Shown piece by piece: positions 18,507 to 43,324 of a DNA stretch of 64,000 nucleotides. The stretch is taken from positions 21,145-85,144 of IMG/VR virus record IMGVR_UViG_3300045740_000123. One strand, written 5' to 3'. The position numbers and the translations under genes are program-made. This DNA is from a virus. Below the pieces are notes generated by a model. It searched no databases, was not told where the DNA came from, and saw only the letters and a program-made list of their open reading frames with translations. How positions within the stretch are numbered: position 1 is the stretch's first letter; every line of letters starts with the position of its first letter.

Positions 18507-18725
18507 ATGACCGACTACACCGATGATCAGCTACTCGCCATGGCTATGGCCAACATTGGCGAGTACATCACCGACAACTCACCTCAGTACATCTTGATTG
18601 AAGACGATCCTCGCAATGAGGATGACTACGACACATGGGAGTACGGCACTGAGCCGTTACCTCAAGACCACACTTGGCACTCCACATCGATTGATGTAGA
18701 GGTAAGTCCAAGTGAGGCCGACTAG
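18507..18725 (+). CDS. small acidic hypothetical protein
   Basis: 72-aa ORF; its stop lies in the displaced tRNA fragment. Confidence 0.6.
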   Translation: MTDYTDDQLLAMAMANIGEYITDNSPQYILIEDDPRNEDDYDTWEYGTEPLPQDHTWHSTSIDVEVSPSEAD

Positions 18726-18744
18726 CCCAACGGCAGAGGCAAGC
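18716..18744 (+). pseudogene. displaced 5-prime fragment of tRNA-Leu
   Basis: GGCCGACTAGCCCAACGGCAGAGGCAAGC matches the start of the tRNA at 19114 (acceptor strand, D-arm, start of anticodon stem). Confidence 0.85.
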
Positions 18745-19131
18745 ATGAAACTCTATGGCCCATACACTCGCAAAGATGGCAGACAACATGTCATTCTTTA
18801 CGAAAATGGCAAACGCAAAACAGTAAGCTATCCCAAGTATTTACTTGAGACAAAGCTTGGTCGATCCCTTTTGCCTCATGAAACCTGTGATCACATTGAT
18901 GGCAATCCTTTAAACAATTCTTTAGATAACTTGCAACTGCTATCCAGAGCGGATAACATACGCAAGCACGCAGCTCTTTTACCTGCAGAGCTGGGAACTT
19001 TCACTTGTCCTATTTGTTTGTGTTCATTTACAAAACGAATGCATAACACTAGGCACAATCGAAAGCAAGGAAAACGTGGACCTTATTGTTCACGTTCATG
19101 TGCAGGTAAAGCTGGCCGACTAGCCCAATAG
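18745..19131 (+). mobile_element. free-standing HNH homing endonuclease inserted in tRNA-Leu
   Basis: CDHIDGNPLNNSLDNLQLLSRADN; C-terminal CxxC and YCSRSC; flanked by duplicated tRNA 5-prime ends. Confidence 0.85.
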
Positions 19132-19191
19132 GAAGCAGGCAAGCGACTTAAAATCGCTCAAGTCCCGGTTCGAATCCGGGGTCGGCTACCA
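19114..19191 (+). tRNA. tRNA-Leu(UAA) with encoded CCA
   Basis: acceptor GGCCGAC/GTCGGCT, anticodon arm AGCGA-CTTAAAA-TCGCT, T arm CCCGG-TTCGAAT-CCGGG, ACCA end; short variable loop. Confidence 0.92.
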
Positions 19192-19212
19192 ACCCAAACT
19201 CAATTCAAACCC

Positions 19213-19575
19213 ATGCAATTCTTTGCTGCTTTCAAGTCCCTCATCCCTGAGTTCCATGCCTACTCAGATGAGGACAATCGCTACAATCTTGGTGCCACCT
19301 GGACTGCAGCCGATGGCCTGAAGGACTATCACAACCTGGAGCTACGGTACATCCGTAACTCAGAGCGTCTTGCTCTCCAGGGTGAGCCCTGTCCTGATGG
19401 CAGCTGGCGCTACGTCGAGCCCAATGGTGCTGTCCATACCATCAGTCCTGAACGTGCCAAGCACTTCATGGAGCAAACCCAAGCTCATGCCACACTCATG
19501 GTTGGCATGCTTGATAAGTTACGGGATGCTGGCATCCTGGATCAGATGGTGGACACCACGGCAGAACCTGCCTAA
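19213..19575 (+). CDS. hypothetical protein
   Basis: 120-aa ORF with ACTCAATTCA leader. Confidence 0.75.
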   Translation: MQFFAAFKSLIPEFHAYSDEDNRYNLGATWTAADGLKDYHNLELRYIRNSERLALQGEPCPDGSWRYVEPNGAVHTISPERAKHFMEQTQAHATLMVGMLDKLRDAGILDQMVDTTAEPA

Positions 19576-19623
19576 GATCACTGCGGAATGTTCGGCCCCT
19601 GCATGTGCGGGGGTCTTTTCTTC

Positions 19624-19953
19624 ATGATCACTCCAGCTCAGTCAGAGATAGTTACAGATGTAACTGAACTCATTGCAGATTGCATCCCTGATTCCGAATG
19701 GGATCGGGTGCGTCAAGCAATTGTCGAACGCATTGTTGACAACATGCCATCACAAGTCATGATGCAACTAACTAACAGCGTTGACAACTTTGATTTTGCT
19801 GAGCTGGTACTCAACACTCACTACAAAGAAGCACCAAACCTTGAGTTGATTGTCGATGCATTCAAACTCATTGGTGCTGAACAAACTGCTGACCTGCTTG
19901 ATTCACTAAACATTCAACAAGAGAATGGCATTCCAGAAGCCAATCCTTCCTGA
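19624..19953 (+). CDS. hypothetical protein
   Basis: start at MITPAQSE, downstream of a terminator-like hairpin near 19595-19622. Confidence 0.65.
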   Translation: MITPAQSEIVTDVTELIADCIPDSEWDRVRQAIVERIVDNMPSQVMMQLTNSVDNFDFAELVLNTHYKEAPNLELIVDAFKLIGAEQTADLLDSLNIQQENGIPEANPS

Positions 19954-20329
19954 CTGTCCTCAATGCAATCAACCTGAACTCAAAGTTATTGAATCCAGGA
20001 AGACTGGTCTATCAACAAGACGCCGTAAGAAATGCGGTTGCTGTGGCTACAAGGTTACAACCCATGAAGTTACAGCAGACTTCTTTGAAGAAGCCAAGCG
20101 CAATCTTTATCTTGTTGAGCAGCTCCACAAACTCATGGCAAATCAACCACTCACATCCGGGGTGGTTCCACCCCCATCTGGGGTGAGTCCATCTGAGTTC
20201 AAAGCACTCAACAAATGCAGTGACTGCCAGCACAACAAAGATGGTTGTTACTGCGCTTTTGATTTCCCTGAGTACGACACTGCTGAGTCGTACGATTGCA
20301 ATCACTTTCAACTCTGGAAATCCAAATGA
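19925..20329 (+). CDS. NrdR-like zinc-ribbon protein without ATP cone
   Basis: CPQC...KVIESR...RRRKKCGCCGYKVTTHE matches the NrdR N-terminal pattern; second Cys cluster at the C-terminus. Confidence 0.65.
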   Translation: MAFQKPILPDCPQCNQPELKVIESRKTGLSTRRRKKCGCCGYKVTTHEVTADFFEEAKRNLYLVEQLHKLMANQPLTSGVVPPPSGVSPSEFKALNKCSDCQHNKDGCYCAFDFPEYDTAESYDCNHFQLWKSK

Positions 20330-20673
20330 CACAACAACATCCCATCACCCCATCTCCCGAGCTAATACAGCAGTGGATTGATCAATCTTTACTTGCTATC
20401 AATTATGACCATTGTATTGCTATCCGGGCCGCCCAATGGGGCGCAGACCAAGAGCTGGAGGCTTGCTGTGAATGGATTGCTGATTGGTACGGACATGGAT
20501 GCAATGAGGTAATTGACAATCTCCGCACCTCACGCCGCCCCAAGCAGCCGAGCTTGAAGGAGCAGGCGCTGAAAGAACTGGCATGGGTTGACGAGCATCT
20601 CGACATGCCGCTGCACAACCACTGCAACGCTATTCACGCAATCCGCCGCGCACTGGAGCAGCTCGATGACTAA
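20326..20673 (+). CDS. MTQQHPITP-family repeated small protein
   Basis: paralog of 24558..24908 (AQWGADQELEACCEW, LKEQAL, IRRALEQL). Confidence 0.75.
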   Translation: MTQQHPITPSPELIQQWIDQSLLAINYDHCIAIRAAQWGADQELEACCEWIADWYGHGCNEVIDNLRTSRRPKQPSLKEQALKELAWVDEHLDMPLHNHCNAIHAIRRALEQLDD

Positions 20674-20908
20674 CTTCCAAGCACTTTGCGCTGAACTGGT
20701 GAAACAACTGGAAGGATGGCAGTGCTATGCGAGCCCGGATGGCCCCAACGCTAAGGTGCTGGACCGCGCCCGAGCCGCCCTATCCCAGCCCAAGCCGCCG
20801 AGTTTGAAGGAGCAGGCGCTAGAGGCGTTAGCTCACATTCTCAATAACAGCTCTACTCAACTTGGTGCAGACACCATCCGCCGCGCACTTGAACAACTCC
20901 CTGATTAA
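20666..20908 (+). CDS. small protein sharing the PKPPSLKEQAL...IRRALEQL module
   Basis: ATG at 20666 overlaps the previous stop; shares its C-terminal module. Confidence 0.7.
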   Translation: MTNFQALCAELVKQLEGWQCYASPDGPNAKVLDRARAALSQPKPPSLKEQALEALAHILNNSSTQLGADTIRRALEQLPD

Positions 20909-20912
20909 TTCA

Positions 20913-21215
20913 ATGACAACCAAACGCCAGTACGACTACACCATTGGTGATCGCGTAGCAGAGCGTCCCAAATCCCATGGTATCTTTGCTGTACGCAATG
21001 AAACCAAAGATCGTATTCAGCAGTACAGGTCCCAGCGCTATGGCACTGTTGTTGGTATTAATCTGAAACCAAACAAGTCAGGTGCTAAGCAGAAGTTCTT
21101 GCTGATCAGGTGGGATCATTTGCAGACTCCCACGGAACATGCACAGATGAGGATCTGTCCTGCTGATCAACTCCAGCGTTTACAATCTGAGGGTTATGGA
21201 TTCGAAGTCGAATGA
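20913..21215 (+). CDS. hypothetical protein
   Basis: MTTKRQYDYTIGDRV...; SH3-barrel-like pattern. Confidence 0.65.
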   Translation: MTTKRQYDYTIGDRVAERPKSHGIFAVRNETKDRIQQYRSQRYGTVVGINLKPNKSGAKQKFLLIRWDHLQTPTEHAQMRICPADQLQRLQSEGYGFEVE

Positions 21216-21568
21216 AAGTCGACAAGCCATGGGGTTGGTACAACACACTGACCCCAGAACAAACCTCATTGTTCCGTGGCTACCTCGTTAAAGAACTACA
21301 CATCAACAAAGGCCATCGCCTTAGCCTTCAGCGCCATCAACACCGGTGTGAACACTGGATTGTTGTCAATGGCGAAGGATTGTTTGAGTGTGATGGCCGC
21401 ACACAAATTGTTAATGAAGGTACTCACTTGTACATTCCAAAGCAATCAGTCCATCGCCTCACTGCAACAAACCAAGACATTCGCATTGTCGAAGTTCAAT
21501 GCGGTGAAGTAATCTCTGAAGACGACATCGAACGTTTAGAAGATGATTATGAACGATCACAGAACTAG
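21212..21568 (+). CDS. cupin, mannose-6-phosphate isomerase type II C-terminal-like
   Basis: KPWGWY, LSLQRHQHRCEHWIVV, HRL, IVEVQCG, EDDIERLEDDYER. Confidence 0.88.
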   Translation: MKVDKPWGWYNTLTPEQTSLFRGYLVKELHINKGHRLSLQRHQHRCEHWIVVNGEGLFECDGRTQIVNEGTHLYIPKQSVHRLTATNQDIRIVEVQCGEVISEDDIERLEDDYERSQN

Positions 21569-21758
21569 CATGATTCTTCAGTCTATTGTCTGGGGTTTAA
21601 TCTTTGGAACATTCATTGTACTTTTCATCGCAATGATCTTTGATACGCCAGAAACAACTAGAGAGAAATTCAAAGTTGTTGACAACTACAAAGGTTGCGA
21701 TGTTGTTCAGTACAATGATCCATCACAACGCTATCAGTACTTCTTGCACTGCTCATGA
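21543..21758 (+). CDS. small membrane protein
   Basis: TM helix then FKVVDNYKGCDVVQY. Confidence 0.65.
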   Translation: MIMNDHRTSMILQSIVWGLIFGTFIVLFIAMIFDTPETTREKFKVVDNYKGCDVVQYNDPSQRYQYFLHCS

Positions 21759-22393
21759 ACGTTGACTTAACTTGGGTAACGCCCAATGCTGAAGAACTCA
21801 TCGTTAAGATGGCACGGGTCTCAGCACCTAAGAACCAAGACAACATGGAGACAGCTCCAAAGTTGTTGCGTTACTTGATCAAGCACAAGCACTGGTCGCC
21901 ATTTGAAATGGCAAACATGTGCGTAGAAATCGAGACGACGCGTGCAATCTCACCACAGATTCTTCGTCATCGTTCGTTTAGCTTCCAGGAATTTAGTCAG
22001 CGTTATGCAGACACAAATGAACTGGGCTCAGCTGTTATTCCGCATCTACGTAGACAAGATCAGAAGAACAGGCAAAACAGTATTGATGACTTATCTTCTG
22101 ATCTTGTTGGTACTTATTATCGACGCATCAGTGAACTGTATGAGAACGCAGAACATCTGTATCGCGAGATGGTAAGCAATGGTATTGCCAAGGAATGTGC
22201 CCGTTCCATTCTGCCGCTATCGACACAGACCCGTCTCTTCATGAACGGTACACTTAGGTCTTATATACATTATTTACAAGTGCGAACTGACCCAAGTACT
22301 CAGCTTGAGCATCGACAAATTGCCTTGGAAATCAAAAAGATTTTTTGCCAACAGTTTCCAATTATTGGTGAGGCTGTATTTAGTGATCAATGA
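21755..22393 (+). CDS. thyX: flavin-dependent thymidylate synthase
   Basis: HWSPFE and the RHRSFSFQEFSQRY ThyX motif, AKECARSILP. Confidence 0.95.
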   Translation: MNVDLTWVTPNAEELIVKMARVSAPKNQDNMETAPKLLRYLIKHKHWSPFEMANMCVEIETTRAISPQILRHRSFSFQEFSQRYADTNELGSAVIPHLRRQDQKNRQNSIDDLSSDLVGTYYRRISELYENAEHLYREMVSNGIAKECARSILPLSTQTRLFMNGTLRSYIHYLQVRTDPSTQLEHRQIALEIKKIFCQQFPIIGEAVFSDQ

Positions 22394-22851
22394 TTAAGCA
22401 TTGTCGTTATTGTGAGCAGGATAAACCTTCTGCTCACTTTTCTCCACACCCACATACAACTGATCGTTTAAGTAACAAATGCAAAGACTGTGTCAGTGTT
22501 TACAACAAACTTCGACATTCAAAAAGAACCAGAAAAGAACTGGATTTAATCAATGCAAAACGAAGAGCAAACAGAAACACATGGAAAACCGATAGGAAAA
22601 AACATTTCAAAAGAGCATATGGAATTACTGTTGAAGACTATGAGGTAATGCTGGTTAACCAAAATAGTGTTTGCAAGATTTGCAATAAACCATGCAAGTC
22701 AGGTAAAAGTTTAGCTGTTGATCATTGCCATGAAACCGGAAAGGTCCGAGGTTTACTGTGTGCAAAATGCAACACAAATCTTGGACGTATCGAAGCATAC
22801 CTTCGTGATCCTAAACCATGGGATGATTATCTTAAATCCTACGAACCTTAA
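22390..22851 (+). mobile_element. Endonuclease VII-type homing endonuclease inserted at the thyX 3-prime end
   Basis: YGITVEDY...CKIC...LAVDHCHETGKVRGLLCAKCNTNLG; displaced thyX tail at 23617. Confidence 0.88.
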
Positions 22852-22870
22852 CCATTACCACTAATCACCC

Positions 22871-23086
22871 ATGCCCGTAACAACAATCAAACGCTGTCAA
22901 TATGAATCCGAGTGGTGGTGGACAGTTGAAGACTGCGTTGCCGAGTACGACGTAGAGCCTGGCTCTGGCCTCACCATCAAGTATCACGACGACAATGATC
23001 AAGTGGGTGAGATAAAGCTAAGCCTTAGCAAGGAAGACGCTCTTCTCATTCGTGATGCAATCAATCAGCTTTATCCGCCCTCTTAG
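22871..23086 (+). CDS. small cassette-like hypothetical protein
   Basis: bounded by conserved stop-junction-start motifs. Confidence 0.65.
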   Translation: MPVTTIKRCQYESEWWWTVEDCVAEYDVEPGSGLTIKYHDDNDQVGEIKLSLSKEDALLIRDAINQLYPPS

Positions 23087-23105
23087 CCGCTTCTACTAAT
23101 CACCT

Positions 23106-23342
23106 ATGACACAACAACATCCCATCACCCCGTCTAACCTTTCACCACAAGCCTGGGTTGTATTAGAAGCAGCCTATCAAGCACCTGACGGTAGGAACGC
23201 CACTCGCCAATGCGTTGCCGCCGCCCTGCGAGCTGCTGCGAATGAATTGGGCTATCGCATCATCTACGACGACGGTGACACCGAGTACAGGATTGATGTC
23301 ACTGATCTGCTAGCCATTGCCGCCGAGCTTGAAGCCCAGTAG
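23106..23342 (+). CDS. chimeric MTQQHPITP / LSPxA-family small protein
   Basis: N-terminus identical to 20326 and 24558; body paralogous to 25068..25313. Confidence 0.7.
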   Translation: MTQQHPITPSNLSPQAWVVLEAAYQAPDGRNATRQCVAAALRAAANELGYRIIYDDGDTEYRIDVTDLLAIAAELEAQ

Positions 23343-23356
23343 TCACCTTCACTTCT

Positions 23357-23590
23357 ATGTCTGACAAGAAATCAACCAAGAAAATCGAGCGTTACAAGCT
23401 CGAAGCAGCATTCGTCTCCCTGGCGGACTACGACGTAACCACCAAAGGCGACGACTTCATGGAAGTGTCCATGTGGCACAACGGTGAGGGCTTCGATGTC
23501 ATCGTCAACAGCAATGGCGAACAACGCTTTTGCCTGACATGGGGGCAGTACAAGGCGCTCAAGACGCTCGTAAAAGAGCTGGACGGCTAA
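23357..23590 (+). CDS. small hypothetical protein flanked by direct repeats
   Basis: DFMEVSMWHNGEGFDV; AGCCCAGTAGTCACCTTC on both sides. Confidence 0.75.
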   Translation: MSDKKSTKKIERYKLEAAFVSLADYDVTTKGDDFMEVSMWHNGEGFDVIVNSNGEQRFCLTWGQYKALKTLVKELDG

Positions 23591-23616
23591 GCCCAGTAGT
23601 CACCTTCCCTAAATGA

Positions 23617-23745
23617 ATCCACTACCTTGATCTCCGCTGCTCCAATGGAACTCAACTCGAGCACCAACAAATTGCCAGAGCAATCAGAAAAATCTTCTGT
23701 GAACAATTCCCAATCATTGGAGAAGCTGTGTTCTCAGCAGATTAA
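23617..23745 (+). pseudogene. displaced original 3-prime end of thyX
   Basis: translates to IHYLDLRCSNGTQLEHQQIARAIRKIFCEQFPIIGEAVFSAD*, 29/42 identical to the last 42 aa of ThyX. Confidence 0.9.
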
Positions 23746-23887
23746 TGACTTGATTGAAAAGTACGAGGAGCCCGAGCAAGCCCGTCAGTTTTTAATGAAG
23801 GCTGGCGTCATTGATGAAGACGGTAATCTAATGCCTCCATGCCAAAAGACCCCAGAGAAAACTCAGGGGCCATTGGATGAATGGAGA

Positions 23888-24004
23888 TCAGAAGGTCGCG
23901 GCGCTTTGTTTTTTTAATTCAGTAACAGCATGCTTGGACTCCACATCCTTGCGCGTCTGCTTCTTCCGTTTGTCTACCAGGTAGACGATCAGTGCTTTGT
24001 TCAT
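23888..24004 (-). CDS. small basic protein (38 aa)
   Basis: MNKALIVYLVDKRKK... read by hand; ATGA overlap with the DUF4278 gene. Confidence 0.5.
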   Translation of the reverse strand: MNKALIVYLVDKRKKQTRKDVESKHAVTELKKQSAATF

Positions 24005-24153
24005 TTGATTTGACCTCCGGTGACAAAGGGAAAGTAGCAAACGTTACGGTAGGTCAGACAGAGCCAGGGACGGTGGGCTAAGTTCCACCAGGCTTTGTCT
24101 GCCTTGGCCTGATCCTCTTGGTTGTATTTGCAACCACGATACGTTAACGTCAT
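24001..24153 (-). CDS. DUF4278-family small protein
   Basis: two LTYRGxxY-type repeats (LTYRGCKY, LTYRNVCY), typical of cyanobacteria and cyanophages. Confidence 0.75.
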   Translation of the reverse strand: MTLTYRGCKYNQEDQAKADKAWWNLAHRPWLCLTYRNVCYFPFVTGGQIK

Positions 24154-24234
24154 GGGTTTTGTATCTATTGATACGGAAACTATATGACGATTGATGTATA
24201 TGATGTCGTTCACCTGGTAACACAACTCAAAAGT

Positions 24235-24534
24235 TTAATGAAAGGTTTTGGTTCAACTCAACAACCAACAAAGTCAGCAGCGTATTGGATAGCTGCTTAT
24301 GCCAAAGACAACGAAGATGAACCACTTGGTGTGGTTAAGAAAGTCTTGACCTATAAACCAGGACAGGACAAAGAACTCTTGATGATTCGTTACTGCAATT
24401 CAGTAATGAAAATCAACCGAAACATATGGGAGATGTTGGTCCACCAAGGACCAACTGAGATTCCAGACTCTGGTGACCAAATTGTTTTACGATTATCCAG
24501 GGAAAAGTTCAAGGGTTCTGCTCAAGTAAACTGA
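24235..24534 (+). CDS. hypothetical protein
   Basis: track ORF 24184..24534; likely start near MKGFG (approximate). Confidence 0.6.
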   Translation, partial: LMKGFGSTQQPTKSAAYWIAAYAKDNEDEPLGVVKKVLTYKPGQDKELLMIRYCNSVMKINRNIWEMLVHQGPTEIPDSGDQIVLRLSREKFKGSAQVN

Positions 24535-24557
24535 CTAGCCATTACCACTAATCACCC

Positions 24558-24908
24558 ATGACACAACAACATCCCATCACCCCACCGCAGGAGCTGATTG
24601 AACAATGGGTGGACGAGTACATACATACCAAGCCAGACTGCACTGCTCCGCAGCTTGTTGCCGCCCGCTCCGCCCAATGGGGCGCAGACCAAGAGCTGGA
24701 GGCGTGCTGTGAGTGGCTGGAGCAGCAGACTCTGTGTGGCCACCAAGACTTGCTTCCTTCATTCCGCGCCGCCCGCCGCCCCAAGCCGCCGAACTTGAAG
24801 GAACAGGCGCTTGAAATCGTGAGGAAAACTCCAGTCAACAGCGCCGCACTTTATTCCTATGAGCACGTAGAAATCATCCGCCGTGCACTGGAGCAACTCA
24901 ATGACTGA
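24558..24908 (+). CDS. MTQQHPITP-family repeated small protein
   Basis: paralog of 20326..20673. Confidence 0.75.
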   Translation: MTQQHPITPPQELIEQWVDEYIHTKPDCTAPQLVAARSAQWGADQELEACCEWLEQQTLCGHQDLLPSFRAARRPKPPNLKEQALEIVRKTPVNSAALYSYEHVEIIRRALEQLND

Positions 24909-25053
24909 ACTACAGCACACTGACGAGGATCTTGATGAGTTTGCCACCTTCTGGTGGCGACCGGAAACAGATGACCTCACCGTTGCCACAGCAATCGAAA
25001 ACGGCCAAATGACGGCGTTTGTTAGGGCTGTAGCTACATGGCTTACCGAATAG
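24901..25053 (+). CDS. small hypothetical protein (50 aa)
   Basis: MTELQHTDEDLDEFATFWW...; overlaps the previous stop and ends in the junction motif. Confidence 0.55.
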   Translation: MTELQHTDEDLDEFATFWWRPETDDLTVATAIENGQMTAFVRAVATWLTE

Positions 25054-25067
25054 TCGCTTCCACTTCT

Positions 25068-25313
25068 ATGTCTGATCTTTCACCCGCTGCAGAAGCAGTT
25101 CTAAATGCCTACATGGATAACTGTGGCTGGCTAGATGGCCCTCTGCAAAGGGATTATCAATGCGTTGCCACCACCCTGCGAGCTGCTGCGGATCAGGTGG
25201 TGCCGGAGGAGCCGCTTTACGGGGGTGATCAGCGCTGGATGTTTGAGCGCGATGCCCGCCAGGATTGTCGTAAGAAACTCCTCGCAATCGCTGATGAGCT
25301 TGAAACCCAGTAG
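25068..25313 (+). CDS. LSPAAxAVL-family small protein
   Basis: paralog of the body of 23106..23342 (CVAxxLRAAA, LLAIAxELExQ). Confidence 0.7.
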   Translation: MSDLSPAAEAVLNAYMDNCGWLDGPLQRDYQCVATTLRAAADQVVPEEPLYGGDQRWMFERDARQDCRKKLLAIADELETQ

Positions 25314-25359
25314 TCACCTTTATTAAAAGCTAAGCCGTGTGTGGAACCACGGCTCTATG

Positions 25360-25566
25360 CTCTCCAGCTCAGACCAAGCTTCACGAGGCAAGGCCCTGAC
25401 CGTTGCTGGTTACGGGTAACGCCCATGAAGTACAAAGGGCTTCCAAATCCTACATAAATGTTTTATATTTGCACTGGTTCTGCAGACCACTCGTGGCCAC
25501 GAGTTAACCAGGAGGTGCAGAGTGGAAGCTGCACCTTTGACAAAAACGATGAAGCAAGCTGGGGAG
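25360..25566 (+). ncRNA. candidate large structured ncRNA
   Basis: nested long-range stems CTCTCCAGCT/AGCTGGGGAG and GCTTCA/TGAAGC, inner hairpins and a possible pseudoknot; no convincing ORF. Confidence 0.6.
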
Positions 25567-25682
25567 TAAGGGCCGACCCTTACTTAAAATCCGTGAACGG
25601 GATCCCTAGCCCTTCATCACTGGACCTGAGCAAGTCCATAAACTACTCATAAGCTCAGCTTATCAATCAACTCAACTCAACC

Positions 25683-35079: not shown

Positions 35080-35114
35080 ACTGCAATACAATAAGTAGAT
35101 GCAAGAGGAGTCCC

Positions 35115-35372: not shown

Positions 35373-35414
35373 TTAAAGTTTGCTGCTAAAGTATTTTGGT
35401 CTTCAATGGTTTAG

Positions 35415-35904: not shown

Positions 35905-36119
35905 ACAACATTCGTTTTTAGAATAGAAGGACGCGATCAAGCGTCTTTTTTATTTTTATATGGACTCCCGCAGCTCAATCGATTTACTGCGTCAACTTGA
36001 TATCAACTACATCATTTACGTCGCATTGTCACATGATGACAAATGTAAAGATCCCGTTTCCGCCGAATGGCTTCAGGGTTATCATCAAGCAGTAAATGAT
36101 GCCTCTGAATTCCTGCGCA

Positions 36120-36437
36120 ATGGCAAACCTTGAAGACGTTTACGCACAAGCTTCTGAACTGTTCCCCAGTAAAAGGTTGGCCCAGGAGACGGCAAATAAA
36201 ATCTTTAACGAGTCCAAGCAGTCGGCAAAGAACAGACTAGAAGAGTACCTGGGTGATACCATTTCTGAATTCGTTGATACCAATTGCCTGACTGGTGAGG
36301 AGTTCTACGAGGTTCTCGTGGACTGTGTTCGTAAGAACTGGGAGTACTACCAGCGCAATGCTGACTGCAATAAAAACCTTCTTAATCTATTGAAACCACA
36401 ATCTTCTGTTGAACTAGAAGAATACACAAAGAAATAA
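36120..36437 (+). CDS. hypothetical protein
   Basis: track ORF 36096..36437; followed by a terminator. Confidence 0.65.
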   Translation: MANLEDVYAQASELFPSKRLAQETANKIFNESKQSAKNRLEEYLGDTISEFVDTNCLTGEEFYEVLVDCVRKNWEYYQRNADCNKNLLNLLKPQSSVELEEYTKK

Positions 36438-36453
36438 ATTTTGTTTTGTGTTG

Positions 36454-36483
36454 CATCCGTCTCGATCAGAGGCGGATGTTTTT
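36454..36483 (+). terminator. intrinsic terminator
   Basis: CATCCGTCT-cgatc-AGAGGCGGATG-like hairpin followed by a T tract. Confidence 0.65.
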
Positions 36484-36526
36484 GTTTGTCTATACAAAGT
36501 AGAATAATAAAAACGAATTAATAGAC

Positions 36527-37846
36527 ATGCCTGTATATAGAGACCCTACAGATAAAAACCTGTATCACGTCCATAAGGTACAGACTTGTAGTGGTCGGCC
36601 GTTAGAAGTAACGACGGCAAGTGGCAACATTGTTCAGGTAACAACTGCTGGCACAACTGCAGGTGATGCTTTTGGTCGTACTCGTGTATCCGAACCATTA
36701 ACGCTCTTTGATTCCAGCCATCGTTATAGCGATAATGGACTGTGGGCAACTGCGACAGGTGTTGGATCTGACGCAACGTTTAATGCTAACGCTGGCCTTG
36801 TTGAATTAAATGTACCAACAACATCTGGTGGTTACGTTAAGCGTGAAACCAAAAAGGTTTTTGCGTATCAGCCAGGGAAATCCTTGTTGGTCCTTTCGAC
36901 TTTTACATTGAGTCCTGCTAAGACTAACCTGCGTCAGCGGGTTGGTTATTTTAATGATGACAATGGACTTTATATTCAATTAAATAATTCGACCCTTGGT
37001 TTTGTTGAGCGTAATTCCGTAACTGGAACCCTAGAAGAAACAGTTGTTAATCAAGCCGATTGGAATATAGACAAGCTGGATGGCACCGGACCATCCGGTA
37101 TAACACTTGATATCACCAAGGCTCAAATCTTTTGGATGGATATTGAATGGTTAGGACTTGGAACAGTGCGTCTTGGTTTTGTGATCAATGGCGTATTTAT
37201 TCATTGCCACTCTTTCCACCATGCAAACTTAATTACGAGTACCTATATCACCACGGCATGCCTACCGTTGCGGTATGAGATCGAAAACCTTGATACAACC
37301 TCAAGCAACAGCACATTAAAACAAGTATGTTCCACCGTTATTTCAGAGGGTGGATACGAGTTGCGGGGTCGGCAAAATGCTATCGGAACCCCAATTAATT
37401 CACCACGAACCTTGACTTCTACTGAAGTTGTTTATCCAATTGCTTCCATCCGACTTAAAACAAGCCCTGACCGTCTTGATGCAATTGTCATTCCGACTGC
37501 CGCAAGCATACTTGGTTCTGGTAACAATGCATACTTTGAATGGCGCCTGCAAAGCCATGCCACAACATCGGGTGGTACTTGGACCAGTGCAGGGGCCGAT
37601 TCTTCTGTTGAGTACAACCTCAGCGGAGTTAGTACCAGTGGAGGAACTACCCTTGCTAAAGGTTACATCTCGTCCACAACACAAAGCAATAACTCCATCA
37701 ATATCTTGAAAGCTGCTCTGTTTCAATTCCAGCTGCAGCGCAATGGGCTGATTGGTACTCCAGAAGAATTCAGTCTTTTGGTTCAAACTGCAGACGCTAA
37801 TAGTCAAGTATATGCATCAATTGACTGGGAAGAAATTTCTCTTTGA
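36527..37846 (+). CDS. beta-rich phage protein, putative structural
   Basis: DAFGRTRVSEPLTLFDS, YQPGKS, WNIDKLDGTGPSG, DIEWLGLG. Confidence 0.7.
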   Translation: MPVYRDPTDKNLYHVHKVQTCSGRPLEVTTASGNIVQVTTAGTTAGDAFGRTRVSEPLTLFDSSHRYSDNGLWATATGVGSDATFNANAGLVELNVPTTSGGYVKRETKKVFAYQPGKSLLVLSTFTLSPAKTNLRQRVGYFNDDNGLYIQLNNSTLGFVERNSVTGTLEETVVNQADWNIDKLDGTGPSGITLDITKAQIFWMDIEWLGLGTVRLGFVINGVFIHCHSFHHANLITSTYITTACLPLRYEIENLDTTSSNSTLKQVCSTVISEGGYELRGRQNAIGTPINSPRTLTSTEVVYPIASIRLKTSPDRLDAIVIPTAASILGSGNNAYFEWRLQSHATTSGGTWTSAGADSSVEYNLSGVSTSGGTTLAKGYISSTTQSNNSINILKAALFQFQLQRNGLIGTPEEFSLLVQTADANSQVYASIDWEEISL

Positions 37847-37872
37847 TAGACTGGTACCACTGATTAAAAGCT

Positions 37873-38424
37873 ATGTATACTCCTGGTCCTCAAGTGGTTC
37901 CTGCGCCTGAAGCAGCGCCAATGCAGCCTGTTCCAGAACCTCAGGCAAAGCCAAAAGGCCCTGCCCGTTCAAAGAATGGTGATGTCGGGGCCTTTATCCA
38001 GCAGTGCATCTCCTTGGCTTCTTACCTCAAGGAACTTCAGACACAAGCCCATCTTATTCACCTGAACTACGAGGGGTCGAACTTCCTCGGGGTGCATGCT
38101 TTCCTTGGAGATCAGTACGAGGCTCATCAGACTCAATTTGATACGTTGTCGGAATTCATCAGGTCTATGGATTACCTGATGCCTATGTGTGCCAGGGGTC
38201 TAGCCGATGCTGGTCCTGGCATCCAGCACGTTACCAGCTACAAGGGAAGCGATCAGCTCACCACGTACTACAAAAACCTGGAAGAGCTGGGCATGAAGAC
38301 CAAGAAGCTGGAGCCTATTGCTGCCAAGGTGGGTGCTATTGATATCCAGAACTACATGGCTGAGCTGTGTGGTCAAGCCTTTAAGGCTGCTTGGCAAATC
38401 AAAGCTACACTTAGGACTTCTTAA
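37873..38424 (+). CDS. dps: Dps/ferritin-like protein
   Basis: AHLIHLNYEGSNFLGVHAFLGDQYE...FDTLSEFIR resembles the Dps ferroxidase motif. Confidence 0.8.
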   Translation: MYTPGPQVVPAPEAAPMQPVPEPQAKPKGPARSKNGDVGAFIQQCISLASYLKELQTQAHLIHLNYEGSNFLGVHAFLGDQYEAHQTQFDTLSEFIRSMDYLMPMCARGLADAGPGIQHVTSYKGSDQLTTYYKNLEELGMKTKKLEPIAAKVGAIDIQNYMAELCGQAFKAAWQIKATLRTS

Positions 38425-38869
38425 ATTTTTGCCCTGGAATAACTGGTTGCATTACTGCGTCGTAATGTGACCAACCAAGTTTTAATCGTCGTTCAATAGT
38501 CTGACGTTTAAGGCCTATTTCTAGCGCCCATTCTTTAACTGTTTGGCATTTGCCATCAATGGTTATATAAATACACATTGAACGATTTCTGTTTTGTTCA
38601 ATGCGTGTTGCCCATTTGCAATTATCTGGAGAATAACCTTTGCTTAAATTAATGCGTTCAATAGAGTATTCTTTACCAGGTCGTTCTCCCATGTCCATTA
38701 AAAAGTTTTCAAAACTATTCCATCTATCACAAACTTTAATTCCTTTTGCACCATATCTTTCGTAGGCTTTTGTATTTGGATTATTACATCTTGAGCGCAT
38801 ATTATGCCAAGTAGAATGAGTCAAAGAACGAATACCGTTTGTCGAATGGCCATGTCGTTGAGCGCTCAT
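38411..38869 (-). mobile_element. free-standing HNH-type homing endonuclease inserted antisense in the dps 3-prime end
   Basis: WHNMRSRCNNPN...YGAKGIKVCDRW..FENFLMDMGERP..SIERI...YSPDNCKWAT..EQNRN; displaced dps end at 38900. Confidence 0.85.
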
Positions 38870-38899
38870 TGCCAAGGTTGCGGAAGTAACCAGTCTAAC

Positions 38900-38923
38900 A
38901 AAGCCACGTTGCGCAATGGCTGA
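38900..38923 (+). pseudogene. displaced original last codons of dps
   Basis: AAA GCC ACG TTG CGC AAT GGC TGA = KATLRNG*, versus KATLRTS* at 38401-38424. Confidence 0.7.
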
Positions 38924-39783
38924 TGCCAAACATCTTTCAAAACTTTCTTAACCAAGTAACTTCTGGTTATCGCCAAGCAGATAAACAGTTGGGTGGATGG
39001 TTGCCAGGGGGTGGCACTGCTTCTCCTGTGACGCGTATAGTATTCCCTCCTCAAAGCTTTCCTGCCAGAAGCAAAGAGCTTCAACAAATGACAGGCGTCA
39101 AAGGACGTTTTGTAGATATTGATAAAACCCCGACAATTACGCGACAAATTGCACAAACAGTGGCTCCACTGTGGGGATCGCAGCCCTATGCAAACCCTTT
39201 GATTGGCGAGGTTGGCGCCCCCGGTTATAGGGGAGGAGCAACACCAAGAGAAAGACACTTAGAAATTCATGAGCTTGGTCATTTAAATCCAGCCGATAAA
39301 GGCATCTATAGTTATTTAGGCGTAGCTGGAAGATACTTGCAAGGACTTAGCAACAGCACTGGTAACTTACCTGTTGTTGATCTTTTGGCTGGTAAACTAA
39401 TGAAACATTTTGATGCACAGGAGGAAGACCGTGCAGAACGTTTTGCAGCTCGTTTTGCAACCCAAGGAAATTATCCTGCTCCTCAAATAAACCCTGAAGG
39501 AACCTCTGCCTATGGAGATCGGCTAAGAAAAGAAGGTAGTGAGATGAGCGAAAATGCTGTTAGTAGAATGCTTAATCCTTGGGGAATCCCTGAAAAAATA
39601 ACCGGGCTTGTAAATCAACAACGGGCATCTATTCTACAAAATGAATTATCACGCTCACTTCCTATTTATCGGGAACGTTTTGGAGGGGAAACCGAGCTTT
39701 CTCCAGAAAATTTAAAAGAAACAGAACGTCTTAACAATTTGGCAAAGCAAATAGAAGCTTTAGGAATTCAACCAAGGTACTAA
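38923..39783 (+). CDS. hypothetical protein with HExxH zincin-like motif
   Basis: IHELGH and a downstream EEDRAERFA. Confidence 0.65.
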   Translation: MPNIFQNFLNQVTSGYRQADKQLGGWLPGGGTASPVTRIVFPPQSFPARSKELQQMTGVKGRFVDIDKTPTITRQIAQTVAPLWGSQPYANPLIGEVGAPGYRGGATPRERHLEIHELGHLNPADKGIYSYLGVAGRYLQGLSNSTGNLPVVDLLAGKLMKHFDAQEEDRAERFAARFATQGNYPAPQINPEGTSAYGDRLRKEGSEMSENAVSRMLNPWGIPEKITGLVNQQRASILQNELSRSLPIYRERFGGETELSPENLKETERLNNLAKQIEALGIQPRY

Positions 39784-40037
39784 GTTACTGACCAGTGCTC
39801 AAGCCTGTGGCAATTGCAGCATAACGGGATGCACTTGCTGATCTCTTCTTCTACTCGGCCCCAGCCGTAGCCATGGTTCACCATGTCAGATATGTTGTTA
39901 TCCTTGTCTCCAATGTGGTGAAACTCTAAGACACGGTGATCATCCAACCCACACTTCTTGCACTGCAGAGTCTTCTTGTACTCCAGAAGCTTCTGTCGAT
40001 TCTTGTTGATACGTTCCTTGGATTGACTCCAGGGCAT
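39780..40037 (-). CDS. small HNH endonuclease
   Basis: CKKCG..LEFHH...EEISKCIPLCCNCHRLEH. Confidence 0.85.
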   Translation of the reverse strand: MPWSQSKERINKNRQKLLEYKKTLQCKKCGLDDHRVLEFHHIGDKDNNISDMVNHGYGWGRVEEEISKCIPLCCNCHRLEHWSVT

Positions 40038-40089
40038 TCATAGCTTTATTGGTGTAATTAATATAACGCTTTTATTGGAATTGTTGATA

Positions 40090-40126
40090 TCGGAGATGCA
40101 GGATTCGAACCTGCGACCCTCTGCTC
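40090..40126 (-). pseudogene. 3-prime half of the disrupted original tRNA-Pro
   Basis: minus strand GA-GCAGA-GGGTC-GCAGG-TTCGAAT-CCTGC-ATCTCCG-A; pairs with the half at 40612-40644. Confidence 0.9.
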
Positions 40127-40518
40127 TATTTAGCTTTTTGTTTCTTCACCTCTCTTTGCTTTTTACCCGCCTGGCTTTTTGCTGTTTTGCACAAATCACA
40201 CCGACATCCATATTTGGAATACGACCAAACTGTCCCATGTGTTTGTCGTTTTTCGTTGGTCCAGCCTTTACCATAACTTCCTTCTTCTAAAGTCTTAATG
40301 TGATGACAGGGTTTGCAAAGTAACTGACACTTTTTAAGTTCTGTTTCTAATGTATCCCAATGGGTTGACCACTTGCAGCTAATATCAAAACTTTTAGAAG
40401 TGTGATCTATGTGGTCAATATGCAACAAATCAGAACAGCCGCATTTAATGCAAACACCCCCAAGAAAATCAATCATCTCTTGGCGACGTTTTTTGTAATC
40501 AGAAATTTTTGAAACCAT
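40126..40518 (-). mobile_element. HNH homing endonuclease of the tRNA-Pro replacement cassette
   Basis: LGGVCIKCG..LHIDHID...ELKKCQLLCKPCH..K and C-terminal HGT..Y...CRCDLC; ATG at 40518. Confidence 0.88.
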
Positions 40519-40523
40519 AAAAA

Positions 40524-40594
40524 TCGGGGTGGAAGGTACTGCCCCTTCTCCTCCGCCTCCCAAAGACGGCGTGATACTTTTCTACTACACCCCG
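40524..40594 (-). tRNA. atypical tRNA-Pro(UGG), replacement copy
   Basis: acceptor CGGGGTG/CACCCCG plus A73, anticodon arm CCGTC-TTTGGGA-GGCGG, T stem GAAGG/CCTTC with non-canonical loop GGCAGTA, weak D arm. Confidence 0.8.
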
Positions 40595-40611
40595 AGGGGT
40601 CCGATCAATTT

Positions 40612-40644
40612 AGCAGATGCGCTACCAAACTGCGCTAATCCCCG
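40612..40644 (-). pseudogene. 5-prime half of the disrupted original tRNA-Pro
   Basis: CGGGGAT-TA-GCGC-AGTTTGGTA-GCGC-A-TCTGC-T. Confidence 0.9.
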
Positions 40645-40652
40645 GTGTTAGG

Positions 40653-40761
40653 GCGAGAGTGTCTGCCTACGATGATCTACGATGCAGCCGAGGGGACTCT
40701 TCGTTTAATACGACGTTCCTTGTCGTACCCTTTGCAGCCCCATCGGAAAGAGAGGGGGTAC
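40653..40761 (-). ncRNA. candidate pseudoknotted structured RNA upstream of tRNA-Pro
   Basis: stems GTACCC/GGGTAC, AGAGT/ACTCT, CTGC/GCAG and loop pairing CCGA(T)GGGG/CCCCTCGG. Confidence 0.5.
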
Positions 40762-40768
40762 TTATTTA

Positions 40769-41317
40769 TTATACAGATTCATTGGGTGTTTTCCAGAAAT
40801 AATCATCGCATTCTCCAAGCCGACCCCACTTCTCTTCCCGATAATCAATATCTTTAGTTAAAAAATCAATAGCGTTTTTCAATATTTGGATATTGTCTTT
40901 GGCGTGGCCAAGCATTGTATTGCATCTATGGCATAAAAGCCCTCTAACCTTGCCTGTTTCATGGCAATGATCTACACAAAATGTTTTCTTTGGAGCGGGA
41001 CTGTTTGTTTTGCATATGGCGCAACAACCTTTTTGAATTTCCAGAATTTGTTTGTATCTACCCCTAGGTAAACCATAGGAACGCAAACGATCAAGATCAT
41101 TAGCGTGTTCTAAATTGTTTTGGCGCCATCGATTGTAATTTTCTTGATGGCGCTTTTTGTTTTTTCTTGACCATTCCCGGCTGTACTCGTTTGTACAAAC
41201 ACGGCACCAAGTATTTAAACCATCTTTGTTTTTCTTTGCTTTGTTAAAAGCATCCTTGGATTTAATCTCTAGGCATTTGGTGCATTTTTTCGTTGGGAGT
41301 TTGCCAGAAATAGTCAT
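40769..41317 (-). mobile_element. Endonuclease VII-type homing endonuclease fused to the displaced C-terminus of its target gene
   Basis: CAIC...FCVDHCHETGKVRGLLCHRCNTMLG; ends KWGRLGECDDYFWKTPNESV. Confidence 0.88.
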
Positions 41318-41951
41318 CGCACTCGCCTAGGCGCCCCCATTTTAACGCTTTTTCAGAGTCAAAGTATCGAGTCGATACCTTAAAGTCTGGTGTCTTTAGA
41401 TCGTGGTTGGTGAGCGATGGATCAACCATTCGACAACGATTGTTGGGATAAGCGCCAATTTGACCGTTGTCCAAAGCCACAATGTTGTGGGACTTATGCT
41501 CGTCAGGAAATTCCGCAAAGTAAAAATCCGGTTCGTTCCTATGAGGATGATAATTGTCAACCGTAAATAGGTATGTGCCTTTCATTACACCTGCACTACG
41601 TGTCATAACTTGAAACTCCATATTGAAGATCAAGTTCTTTTCGACAACCGTAAGACCATGATCAAATCCATTCCAGAACTGCAGGTCAGTTAGCTCTAGG
41701 TCAGGAGTGGGTGCTTGAGGTTTGTCCGGATAATCTGGATCCCATGCCAGGAATGCACTGATGGGAAGCTTGTCGTAAAGGGCTCCGTACTCAGTAAGAT
41801 AAGTCTCAAACTGAAGTGCTCTACCAGTTAAAGATTTACAACTTACCCAATAACCAGGCGTATATTCACCATGACCGTCTCTTAGGTCACGTAAGTATTC
41901 ACGCCTTACCCAAACCTTGACGGGCGGGACATTGGCCACAAGAGTTGTCAC
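41262..41951 (-). CDS. conserved phage hypothetical protein (endonuclease target)
   Basis: ANVPPVKVWVRREYL, GALYDKLPISAF, EHKSHN...NGQ..AYPNNR; GTG start. Confidence 0.8.
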   Translation of the reverse strand: MTTLVANVPPVKVWVRREYLRDLRDGHGEYTPGYWVSCKSLTGRALQFETYLTEYGALYDKLPISAFLAWDPDYPDKPQAPTPDLELTDLQFWNGFDHGLTVVEKNLIFNMEFQVMTRSAGVMKGTYLFTVDNYHPHRNEPDFYFAEFPDEHKSHNIVALDNGQIGAYPNNRCRMVDPSLTNHDLKTPDFKVSTRYFDSEKALKWGRLGECDDYFWQTPNEKMHQMPRD

Positions 41952-42077
41952 AAAAAATCCCGGTGTATCATGCCGGGATCATAGCTTCCTTCCACGCTCT
42001 TGTGAGCACCACGTTCGTAACGTGGAGGGGTTTTCGACTATTACCCCTAGAGCGGTATTGCTCCGCCTGTCAGCATA
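41952..42077 (-). ncRNA. candidate multi-hairpin RNA or leader ending in an intrinsic terminator
   Basis: four adjacent hairpins, then ATCCCGG/CCGGGAT and T6 immediately before the GTG start. Confidence 0.5.
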
Positions 42078-42284
42078 TCAGGATTTACTTCTTTGATAAC
42101 GCCTTGCTGCGCGTCCAGCAAGTTTTGCTTTTCTGGTGTTTGGTACAAATTGTTTGCCTTCGCGGCTAGCCTCGCGTTTCTTTTGGTCAGTCTCTTGCCG
42201 TTCTTCTTTAGATAATGAGGCCCAGGCAGACTCAGGTAGATAACGTTTGGTGTATCCCTTTTGAATTGCTTTATCTGCCATCAT
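42078..42284 (-). CDS. small basic protein, partner of the DUF5872-like gene
   Basis: TKRYLPESAWASLSKEER..TDQKKR....GKQFVPNT. Confidence 0.75.
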   Translation of the reverse strand: MMADKAIQKGYTKRYLPESAWASLSKEERQETDQKKREASREGKQFVPNTRKAKLAGRAARRYQRSKS

Positions 42285-42592
42285 TTACTATCCTTGTATT
42301 TCTTTGCAGCTTCTTTAGCTTTACCGCGCTTTTCATACTCATCTTTCGTCATCCATTTCTCCTTGCCCCACTTCTCCAGGGACTTCTGCTTCTCACCTTT
42401 ACCTCCTTTGTATCCACCGCCTGCACTCTTGTATTCCTGTGCCACAAGCTGAGCTTTTCTAGCCGAAATAATTAGTTAGCCTTACGGCTACGACCATTCT
42501 CCTGGTTTACCGCCACGGCCTTCACGCATAACTTTGTTTTTGATGCGCTCACGCAGGTCTGGTTTTGTGTACTTGCTTTTATCTTCAGCCAT
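42281..42592 (-). CDS. DUF5872-like protein interrupted by a candidate 27-nt ribosomal bypass element
   Basis: MAEDKSKYTKPDLRERIK...GGKPGEWS, gap, ARKAQLVAQEYKSAGGGY...; skipping from TCG to TCG restores the WSARKAQ motif; absent from the ORF track because of in-frame stops. Confidence 0.75.
42464..42493 (-). other. putative programmed translational bypass (hop) element
   Basis: TCG TAG CCG TAA GGC TAA CTA ATT ATT TCG: matched codons, stop after take-off, hairpin TAGCC-GTAA-GGCTA. Confidence 0.7.
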
Positions 42593-43232
42593 AACTTCCT
42601 CGCTCTTTAAGATAAGTGACTGCGTTTGTCAATACATCTATATTATCACCAAATAAACCTAAGGCTCTATTGCACTCTTTGCATAATAAACCTCTGAACT
42701 CATTGGTTTGATGATTATGGTCCATGGCTAAAGATTGTTTATCCTTGGGAGGCTCTTGGCAAATTGCGCATAAACCTTCCTGGGACTCAAACACAATGTC
42801 GTATTGCTCTTTTGTTATCCCTCTGCGTTCGTATTTTTTGTGATTATGATGCAATAAATCTTGCCCTTGTTTTTTAACTTTCTGATAATGCTCCTTATTA
42901 TTGTTTACCCATTTATCCCAACTTAACTTATTGCAAGTTTTACATGAAGAATGAAGGTATAATTTACCGTCTTGCTTTCTTCTTCTAAAGCAATCCCAAT
43001 CTAAATAATGAGCACATTTAGAGCATTGTTTTTGACCGTCTGCTCCATACAATAATCTAAATCGACGGTTGATCAAAGATCTACAATCTTTGCATACGCT
43101 GTCTCTTTTTATATTACCAGCAGAGTTATACCCTTTGTTCCCAAAATTTTCATGCGGCTTTCGGGTTCCGCATTCTCGGCAAAGCTTTTGCATTGGTTGG
43201 TTTGTGCTTTTCTTACAATAGCACAAAATCAC
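42585..43232 (-). mobile_element. Endonuclease VII-type homing endonuclease inserted in the DUF5872-like gene
   Basis: two N-terminal CxxC modules, GITKEQY...CAIC...LAMDHNHQTNEFRGLLCKECNRALG; the start may be the internal MQKLC. Confidence 0.88.
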
Positions 43233-43324
43233 TGCCCAGGCTTGCCGCCTTTAGAACCAGCCATTACGCGATCTTTAATCCTCTCGCGTAACTCCGGTTT
43301 CGTGTATTTGTTTTCCTGAGATAT
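43229..43324 (-). pseudogene. displaced original 5-prime part of the DUF5872-like gene
   Basis: (ATA)SQENKYTKPELRERIKDRVMAGSKGGKPGQ*; homologous to 42491-42592; no ATG at the start-equivalent position. Confidence 0.88.

Follow-up and report, generated by a model that had tools for sequence, protein, structure and literature searches.

Homing endonucleases are thought to require an intron, an intein or an intergenic site for persistence. The mobile element formed by MobA and gene 60 of phage T4 was reportedly described by Bonocora et al. in 2011, and Paquin et al. are said to have reported on atp6 of Allomyces in 1994. In T4, the MobA element carries an insert-encoded homologous replacement called HomR (Manning and Atkins, bioRxiv 10.1101/2022.08.31.505936). 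The same authors state that the gene 60 bypass element is exclusive to myovirus topoisomerase genes (bioRxiv 10.1101/2022.08.31.505936). In fungal mitochondria, C-terminal gene duplications are found beside nuclease open reading frames (ORFs; PMC6279837). The Seg and Mob nucleases of T-even phages are free-standing; they cleave alleles that lack the nuclease and, as they spread, flanking markers are co-converted (PMC2988022). One of these, SegB, lies in a transfer RNA (tRNA) cluster (PMC2330249). F-CphI is a free-standing homing endonuclease of cyanophage S-PM2 with an Endonuclease VII (EndoVII) motif (PMC6083498). Here, we describe nuclease genes in a 64,000-nucleotide (nt) stretch of DNA, hereafter the window. 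This corresponds to bases 21145-85144 of the complete 85,144-bp virus record IMGVR_UViG_3300045740_000123, a cyanophage genome with terminal repeats. We hold with good confidence that the window contains six intron-less homing-endonuclease cassettes. Each would consist of a nuclease gene and a replacement, or patch, for the displaced part of its target gene.

The window was annotated using Pfam, PHROGs, Rfam and ARAGORN. We also compared the entire window with itself by BLAST and with relatives by tblastn; the tRNA-Leu nuclease was followed by protein search. Synechococcus phage S-EIVl is the sole named relative among GenBank phages. It is distant, with 70-78% DNA identity that is discontinuous along the window. 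Hence, comparative tests rest on IMG/VR loci: approximately 80 syntenic relatives around a PurM-like gene and a handful around thyX. Labels such as L004 and L085 denote contigs of these relatives.

The targets are two tRNA genes (tRNA-Leu and tRNA-Pro) and four protein genes (thyX, dps, the PurM-like gene and a DUF5872-like gene), all without an intron. The sequence-only reading that drew attention to this region listed six duplications. All are real and lie where it placed them or within a few bases. It also noted that the patch overlaps the nuclease start or stop codon at five sites, with a 5-nt spacing at tRNA-Pro, and this is correct. All six nucleases are assigned to homing-endonuclease folds. 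Pfam identifies HNH_3 in 18745-19131 and Endonuclease_7 in 22390-22851, 40769-41317 (minus strand) and 42585-43232 (minus strand). The remaining two, 38411-38869 and 40126-40518 (both minus strand), belong to HNH families of PHROGs. The G+C content of the six genes is 0.36-0.41, compared with 0.47 for the window. Outside the window, the genome encodes two more HNH genes at 5230-5703 (minus strand) and 14566-15147 (plus strand), matching Pfam HNH and HNH_3. Flanking duplications were not detected at either of these two genes by blastn or tblastx.

The sequence-only reading predicted the outcome of a comparison with relatives lacking each nuclease, and this prediction holds. At all six sites, the uninterrupted allele of nuclease-free IMG/VR relatives equals the flank joined to the stranded fragment. 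It does not match the patch. Hence, the stranded fragment is native and the copy adjacent to the nuclease is a diverged replacement. Where measurable, DNA identity between the two copies is 59-81%. In the self-comparison, only the thyX and PurM-like pairs reached significance. The pairs at tRNA-Leu, dps, tRNA-Pro and DUF5872 are too short for statistics and were established via homologues in relatives. The patches bear signs of function, as originally proposed: ORFs are intact, patch copies differ from one another chiefly at third codon positions and the Rfam score of the substitute tRNA exceeds the threshold. No nuclease occurs in more than three of the ~80 fetched syntenic relatives, always at exactly the same junction, and distribution is sporadic; further carriers came from targeted searches. 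The nuclease, the same patch and a local remnant recur together in other assemblies at five sites (tRNA-Leu, dps, tRNA-Pro, PurM-like and DUF5872).

The DUF5872 site comprises five features:

42281-42463, minus strand: resident C-terminal part of the DUF5872-like gene, 85-98% identical to continuous genes of relatives, with a weak DUF5872 match
42464-42490, minus strand: coding gap of 27 nt, with UAG, a UAGCC-GUAA-GGCUA hairpin, an A/U-rich spacer and landing codon UCG
42491-42592, minus strand: patch, a new DUF5872 N-terminal part of 34 codons; it ends in take-off codon UCG and its ATG overlaps the nuclease stop codon
42585-43232, minus strand: EndoVII-motif nuclease gene (Pfam PF02945, 1e-22)
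43229-43324, minus strand: stranded native DUF5872 N-terminal part, matching continuous genes of relatives, with the start codon mutated to ATA

In approximately 40 relatives the DUF5872-like gene is continuous and its N-terminal part matches the stranded copy. For all 29 distinct natural alleles the stranded copy is closer than the patch (mean identity 0.81 versus 0.61). The block comprising nuclease, patch and gap is 87-98% identical between the window and L026, while the flanks are ~40-80% identical. Decay of the remnant differs; the start codon changed from ATG to ATA in the window and L026 has a frameshift.

The sequence-only reading identified the duplication at this site and inferred that patches restore function. 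Here, the patch does not restore a single open frame: the 27-nt gap, with three in-frame stop codons, lies between it and the rest of the gene. We collected 50 viral contigs with the gap which, with the window, give 51 sequences and 42 haplotypes. A metagenome search in which nothing but UCG-UAG was fixed found gap-bearing DUF5872 in 77 of 80 matches. Hence, the arrangement occurs in more than 100 viral and metagenome contigs. The gap is 23-33 nt long, has 2-4 in-frame stops and, in 15 of 51 sequences, is not a multiple of three. The take-off codon is UCG in 51 of 51 viral-set sequences and the landing codon is UCG in 49 and UCU in two, though these counts overstate independence because the gap sequences are related. 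Metagenome landing codons are mostly UCG, with three UCU and two UCA. At the equivalent serine, gap-free alleles use UCU, AGU, AGC or UCC, and UCG in none of 29. Fisher tests on these data are subject to the same limit on independence.

The first triplet after take-off is UAG, within a UAGCC-GNRA-GGCUA hairpin. All loops in the viral set are GNRA. The stem is kept in 74 of 77 metagenome sequences, a few of which have UUAG loops. The gap spacer is 86% A+U, with 9 G in 401 nt. In T4 gene 60, GGA is followed by UAGCC-UUCG-GGCUA and AUUAUU precedes the landing GGA; the stem is identical to that of the DUF5872 gap. As in gene 60, the codons are matched and readable by one tRNA, a stop follows take-off within the hairpin and the frame is kept only via a hop. 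Taken together, these similarities suggest that ribosomes most probably hop from UCG to UCG over the gap, which would give one polypeptide. As a separate observation, in the minimum-energy fold of 42455-42500 (minus strand), UGGUCG at take-off base-pairs with CGGCUA at landing, enclosing the hairpin. Both UCG codons would thereby lie close to each other.

An alternative, confined to this site, is that no bypass occurs. The gene would then be dead or split into two separately translated polypeptides. Nuclease-split genes can work as two chains, as for T4 gp39/gp60 and Aeh1 NrdA (PMC2988022). Nevertheless, we consider this alternative doubtful. No conserved start codon or ribosome-binding site was found before the C-terminal part, and in several variants of the gap the landing codon is immediately preceded by stop codons in the same frame. 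The C-terminal ORF is intact in 50 of 50 complete cases and, in both parts, changes fall mainly at third codon positions. Furthermore, landing codons are always UCG, UCU or UCA; AGY or UCC, which account for 14 of 29 gap-free alleles, are never used. The EndoVII nuclease lies upstream of the gap in most of the 50 viral contigs. In others, it is reduced to its last 20-60 codons or absent (L166, L168, L185, L189, L191, L193, L195, L207, L217; L177, L194, L213).

The tRNA-Leu site comprises three features:

18716-18744, plus strand: first 29 nt of the resident tRNA-Leu(UAA), stranded; equal to nt 1-29 of the intact tRNA-Leu in L085
18745-19131, plus strand: HNH (HNH_3) homing endonuclease gene (Pfam PF13392, phrog_14913)
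19114-19191, plus strand: intact tRNA-Leu(UAA) (ARAGORN; Rfam 53 bits), of which the patch is approximately nt 1-31 (19114-19144)

The nuclease ATG directly follows the remnant, which has the same context, after orf72, in nuclease-free L085. The last codons and stop of the nuclease gene fall inside the 5' end of the new tRNA. The D-loop of the patch differs from that of the remnant and equals the natural allele of L087. In L220 and L221, a 95%-identical HNH gene has the same arrangement, with an identical patch D-loop and a mutated remnant. The anticodon stem of the resident tRNA-Leu in these contigs differs from that of the window by a compensatory pair. More distant relatives of the nuclease likewise abut tRNA-Leu genes.

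Group I introns classically interrupt tRNA-Leu(UAA), and L225 has one (Rfam 64.8 bits) in a homologous tRNA-Leu, inserted at the canonical U34/A35 position and encoding a 50%-identical HNH. The window nuclease has no intron, is inserted ~5 nt upstream of U34/A35 and supplies a new tRNA 5' end. Hence, one HNH lineage targets the same tRNA-Leu by either strategy, intron or patch, ~5 nt apart. The tRNA-Leu(UAA) of this phage group (window 19114-19191; L085-L087) has a short variable loop, is 76-78 nt long and is class I-like. At this position, L084 and L098 have a tRNA-Leu(UAA) of the conventional long-arm type.

The tRNA-Pro site comprises four features:

40090-40124, minus strand: stranded 3' half of the resident tRNA-Pro; one T-loop base differs from the tRNA-Pro(UGG) of L011, and the downstream flank matches too
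40126-40518, minus strand: HNH nuclease gene (phrog_4234, 6e-32)
40524-40594, minus strand: substitute tRNA-Pro(UGG) (Rfam tRNA 37.5 bits, threshold 29)
40613-40644, minus strand: stranded 5' half of the resident tRNA-Pro, equal to nt 1-32 of tRNA-Pro in L011, L012 and L017

Both halves are present as first reported, with boundaries now corrected to 40124 and 40613. The insert replaces the 7-nt anticodon loop of the resident tRNA. Apart from the single T-loop base, the halves are the same as the uninterrupted tRNA-Pro(UGG) of relatives such as L011. The insert consists of a very different tRNA-Pro(UGG), the 5-nt spacer and the HNH gene. A 92% relative of the nuclease holds the same position in L031. 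There, the substitute tRNA is identical at 71 of 71 positions and the flanking halves are of another tRNA-Pro type. An exact search with the anticodon-arm sequence of the substitute found one further contig only, L031. The anticodon stem of the L031 tRNA-Pro beside the insert is of the donor type and, from its sequence, this pattern looks like a co-conversion tract. A small HNH-like ORF (39780-40037, minus strand, 85 amino acids) is weakly similar to the tRNA-Pro nuclease. This lies beside the tRNA-Pro site in most relatives and looks resident rather than mobile. The PurM-like/orf85 slot appears to be a variable tRNA islet; different tRNAs (Pro, Thr, Cys, oddly called) occupy it in L023, L024, L027, L033-L038 and L061.

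The dps site comprises three features:

37873-38424, plus strand: dps, ferritin-like (Pfam Ferritin); the last 24 nt (38401-38424, KATLRTS and stop) are the patch
38411-38869, minus strand: HNH nuclease gene (phrog_3377, 1.5e-49), overlapping at its 3' end with the oppositely oriented dps patch
38900-38923, plus strand: stranded native dps end (KATLRNG and stop); its TGA overlaps the ATG of the next gene (38923)

This duplication spans just seven codons. Nuclease-free L004 and L016, like most other relatives, have a native dps that ends in this KATLRNG-stop junction, where the ATG of the following gene overlaps. Six contigs (L314-L319) encode a 76-83%-identical HNH at the same site, likewise inverted. 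Their patches are similar, reading KATLRSS, KASLRSS or KAVLRSS. A native-type remnant lies ~30 nt from the nuclease start in four of the six and is degraded in the other two.

The PurM-like site comprises two features:

40769-41317, minus strand: EndoVII-motif nuclease gene (Pfam PF02945, 3e-25); its last 20 codons (40772-40831) are the stranded PurM-like tail
41262-41951, minus strand: PurM-like (phrog_3704) gene, with a patch (41283-41342) and a new 6-codon end; the nuclease ATG lies within the patch

The duplication was correctly recognised by the sequence-only reading, which regarded the target as a hypothetical gene. Instead, this is a conserved phrog_3704 gene annotated as PurM in S-EIVl, to which the encoded protein is 86% identical over residues 1-223. 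The native tail, KWGRLGECDDYFWKTPNESV and a stop, is fused in frame to the nuclease end. In the self-comparison, 40778-40831 matches 41289-41342 with 81% identity (E 3e-7). Native ends of relatives are nearer the remnant than the patch in 54 cases, versus 14 nearer the patch, and the remnant equals native ends, such as that of L011. L004 shares the cassette; its nuclease is a 91% relative and its patch is 98% identical. We considered, and dropped, a description of this patch as showing near-saturating synonymous recoding. The identity between patch and remnant is 0.75 and that among natural alleles is 0.65-0.85. Searching with the nuclease by tblastn also gave 38-44% matches in L017, L019, L028, L035, L036 and L061, beginning inside the PurM-like 3' end at ~10480-10520. 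These may reflect another nuclease that occupies this site, or just the shared tail.

The thyX site comprises four features:

21755-22393, plus strand: chimeric thyX (Pfam Thy1); the last 129 nt (22265-22393) are the patch
22390-22851, plus strand: EndoVII-motif nuclease gene (Pfam PF02945, 1e-21); its ATG overlaps the thyX stop (ATGA)
22871-23590, plus strand: three small ORFs between nuclease and stranded tail, from the ORF list, with repeat families D2, D3, D5 and D6
23617-23745, plus strand: stranded native thyX tail, 42 codons and a stop, with another stop codon ahead of it; its DNA is 89% identical to the L084 tail

Over its first 510 nt, thyX shares 77-90% identity with L084. In the patch, identity is 60% with L084, versus 77% with S-EIVl; the patch takes in an S-EIVl-like junction between the thyX stop and the start of the next gene. 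Its G+C content of 0.36 resembles that of the nuclease genes. The stranded tail keeps the native downstream context. In the self-comparison, 22298-22380 matches 23650-23732 with 76% identity (E 2e-9). Five near-complete relatives have an uninterrupted thyX. The nuclease is absent from all nine thyX-carrying relatives and in seven of these the stranded tail is closer than the patch. The three small ORFs, which tblastn did not find in thyX-carrying relatives, are cargo or a later insertion. More broadly, 22849-25335 contains small genes parted by a repeated stop-junction-start motif (families D2, D3, D5 and D6). Paralogous small ORFs occur at 20326-20908, 23084-23349 and 24536-25320. Elsewhere, 57604-60333 and 61250-61524 contain diverged tandem paralogues with 64-80% DNA identity in self-comparison; these are unrelated to the nucleases.

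We propose the following mechanism. Briefly, the nuclease would cut a naive allele near the junction. Repair would then copy the nuclease and the replacement from a cassette-bearing genome. Homology for repair would be provided by the gene body on one side and, on the other, by the stranded fragment and what follows it. The replacement would keep the gene functional. Hence, insertion in a conserved gene or tRNA could be tolerated without splicing. The displaced native part stays beyond the nuclease as a decaying remnant, which would be both a repair scar and homology for further homing. Initially, the replacement was probably the nuclease donor's own allele, captured by repair that was homologous on one side only. 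This origin fits tRNA-Leu, thyX and perhaps the PurM-like gene.

In the sequence-only reading, the patches were said to be recoded, which the alleles compared here do not show. The tRNA-Leu patch equals an allele found naturally in L087, the thyX patch resembles S-EIVl and the PurM-like patch is within the natural spread. Judged by sequence, no fewer than three patches represent alleles that occur naturally in other lineages and were captured together with the nuclease. The DUF5872 and tRNA-Pro replacements are far diverged from any natural allele found.

The same observations could be read as neutral repair scars. Free-standing nucleases would have arrived from a diverged donor, and one-sided repair would have left an accidental duplication, with no cassette moving as a unit. 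The resemblance of three patches to natural alleles of other lineages fits this explanation, as does the S-EIVl-like junction in the thyX patch. Segmental amplifications from nuclease-induced breaks are also reported in T-even phages (PMC13096335). However, the unit of nuclease and patch recurs in different genomic backgrounds at five sites, with exact junctions and overlapping codons. In addition, no natural allele found resembles the DUF5872 patch or the substitute tRNA-Pro, and the DUF5872 patch and gap persist under constraint after nuclease loss. Repair scars account well for origin but not for persistence and spread. As a complete explanation, we regard them as unlikely.

It is highly unlikely that local tandem duplication came first and that nucleases landed later in the spacers, giving the two events unrelated histories. 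This is possible at thyX, where other ORFs lie between nuclease and remnant. Conversely, copies with 59-81% DNA identity are far more diverged than local duplication predicts, close relatives match the remnant rather than the patch and the G+C content of the thyX patch follows the nuclease. Finally, although tRNA-Leu(UAA) commonly hosts group I introns and a related HNH is intron-borne in L225, we essentially discount self-splicing introns, inteins and assembly chimeras: as the initial claim of intron-less insertion would predict, no Rfam intron model matched 17000-45000 at E up to 1 (only two tRNAs and two chance hits were returned); the nucleases are in other frames or on the other strand, which is incompatible with inteins; splicing could not rebuild the old tRNA-Pro, whose anticodon loop is missing; and independent assemblies repeat the pairing of nuclease and patch at five sites, which rules out chimeras.

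Some observations count against the interpretation of the six loci as mobile cassettes with functional patches. The cleavage sites and the direction of transfer are putative, as is the immunity of patched alleles through removal of the cut site, which the sequence-only reading proposed. Three patches have a similar natural counterpart, which makes it unnecessary to postulate selection for divergence. Across the PurM-like region, identity between the window and L004 is ~90%, with no sharp cassette block in the profile. Hence, shared descent explains this pair as well as transfer does. At thyX, a second example of the cassette was not found, the nuclease has no close IMG/VR relative (best 48%) and 720 bp of other ORFs separate it from the remnant. 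The substitute tRNA-Pro was not called by ARAGORN. Its T loop is GGCAGUA and its D loop has no GG, so that it lacks the canonical elbow between D-loop GG and T-psi-C. Consequently, to judge from these bases, it may work poorly. The DUF5872 patch restores function only if ribosomes bypass the 27-nt gap. No GAG, GGG, GGA or AGG is present 5-7 nt before the landing codon, where a Shine-Dalgarno-like element would be expected. Compensatory change or covariation was not found in the stem of the bypass hairpin. What is observed directly is the anatomy, native alleles that match remnants, co-travel of nuclease and patch, and constraint on patches.

On balance, we favour a broader view in which a guild of phage homing endonucleases enters essential genes and tRNAs by bringing along a spare part, a third route in addition to introns and inteins. 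One of them would have a second, independently placed hopping family of the gene 60 type, with a gap of 23-33 nt, in a different gene and with a different nuclease family, in cyanophages. Such a compact alternative to introns, inteins and intergenic sites is used six times in one genome, by HNH and EndoVII-motif nucleases, against tRNA and protein genes. The tRNA-Leu nucleases offer a natural control: a single HNH lineage occupies this tRNA with an intron in one phage and with a patch in another. The anatomy accounts for chimeric genes and for orphan fragments of genes in phages. It further provides an annotation rule, namely a diverged partial duplicate flanking a nuclease gene, and points to where the nucleases probably recognise their targets. 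Of greatest importance is the DUF5872 cassette. A second bypass family that is short, abundant and variable would allow rules for codon matching, hairpin, spacer and the lack of a Shine-Dalgarno element to be tested. If true, programmed bypassing is a portable module and not a one-gene curiosity. Our literature search found no paper linking bypassing with cyanophages or DUF5872.

How do these loci compare with known systems? One close counterpart is the T4 MobA element. In both, a free-standing nuclease lies within an ORF without an intron, and a diverged homologue of the target (HomR in T4) overlaps the nuclease ORF. Both have a bypass cassette at the 3' edge of the insert, and the gap outlasts the nuclease in some genomes. 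Thus, decay of the DUF5872 nuclease with the gap kept, as in some contigs, mirrors decay of mobA in T4. Shared details of the bypass cassettes include UAG after take-off, wobble-variant codon pairs, the UAGCC-loop-GGCUA hairpin, GNRA or UUAG loops, an A/U-rich 3' spacer and a short-gap clade. There are also differences. In the MobA system the native segment is deleted, whereas here it is kept as a remnant. There, the topoisomerase is split into two chains with added tails, while here there is a single gene. The MobA element is reported only in myovirus Topo2L, with MobA-type HNH nucleases (some replaced by GIY-YIG or VSR). The DUF5872 cassette involves neither, having an EndoVII-motif nuclease and an S-EIVl-like cyanophage host gene. 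Its gap is 23-33 nt rather than the ~50 of the MobA system, its codon pair is UCG/UCG and it has no mini Shine-Dalgarno sequence.

The fungal mitochondrial case also has a free-standing nuclease ORF by a gene with a doubled 3' end, of which one copy is used and the other is a downstream remnant. It differs in being in an organelle genome, in its LAGLIDADG or GIY-YIG nucleases and in affecting 3' ends of protein genes only. There are no tRNA targets, 5'-end replacement or bypass, and no multi-site system in a single genome is presented in PMC6279837. The T-even Seg and Mob genes likewise encode intron-less homing nucleases with tRNA regions among their targets. They lie between genes, or split a gene into two working chains, unlike the arrangement here. 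A replacement segment with a stranded native fragment is unmentioned in the field review of such nucleases (PMC2988022), and a survey of phage nuclease genes does not describe the cassette anatomy. F-CphI is also a free-standing cyanophage homing nuclease with an Endonuclease VII catalytic motif. It adjoins its target gene, rather than lying inside with a patch. The suggestion in the sequence-only reading that a general system of this kind had not been described is therefore only partly right, as T4 MobA HomR and the fungal mitochondrial C-terminal duplications are precedents. We conclude that the principle of a nuclease plus replacement has precedents, and that this one genome displays it unusually richly, with the putative bypass cassette of particular interest.

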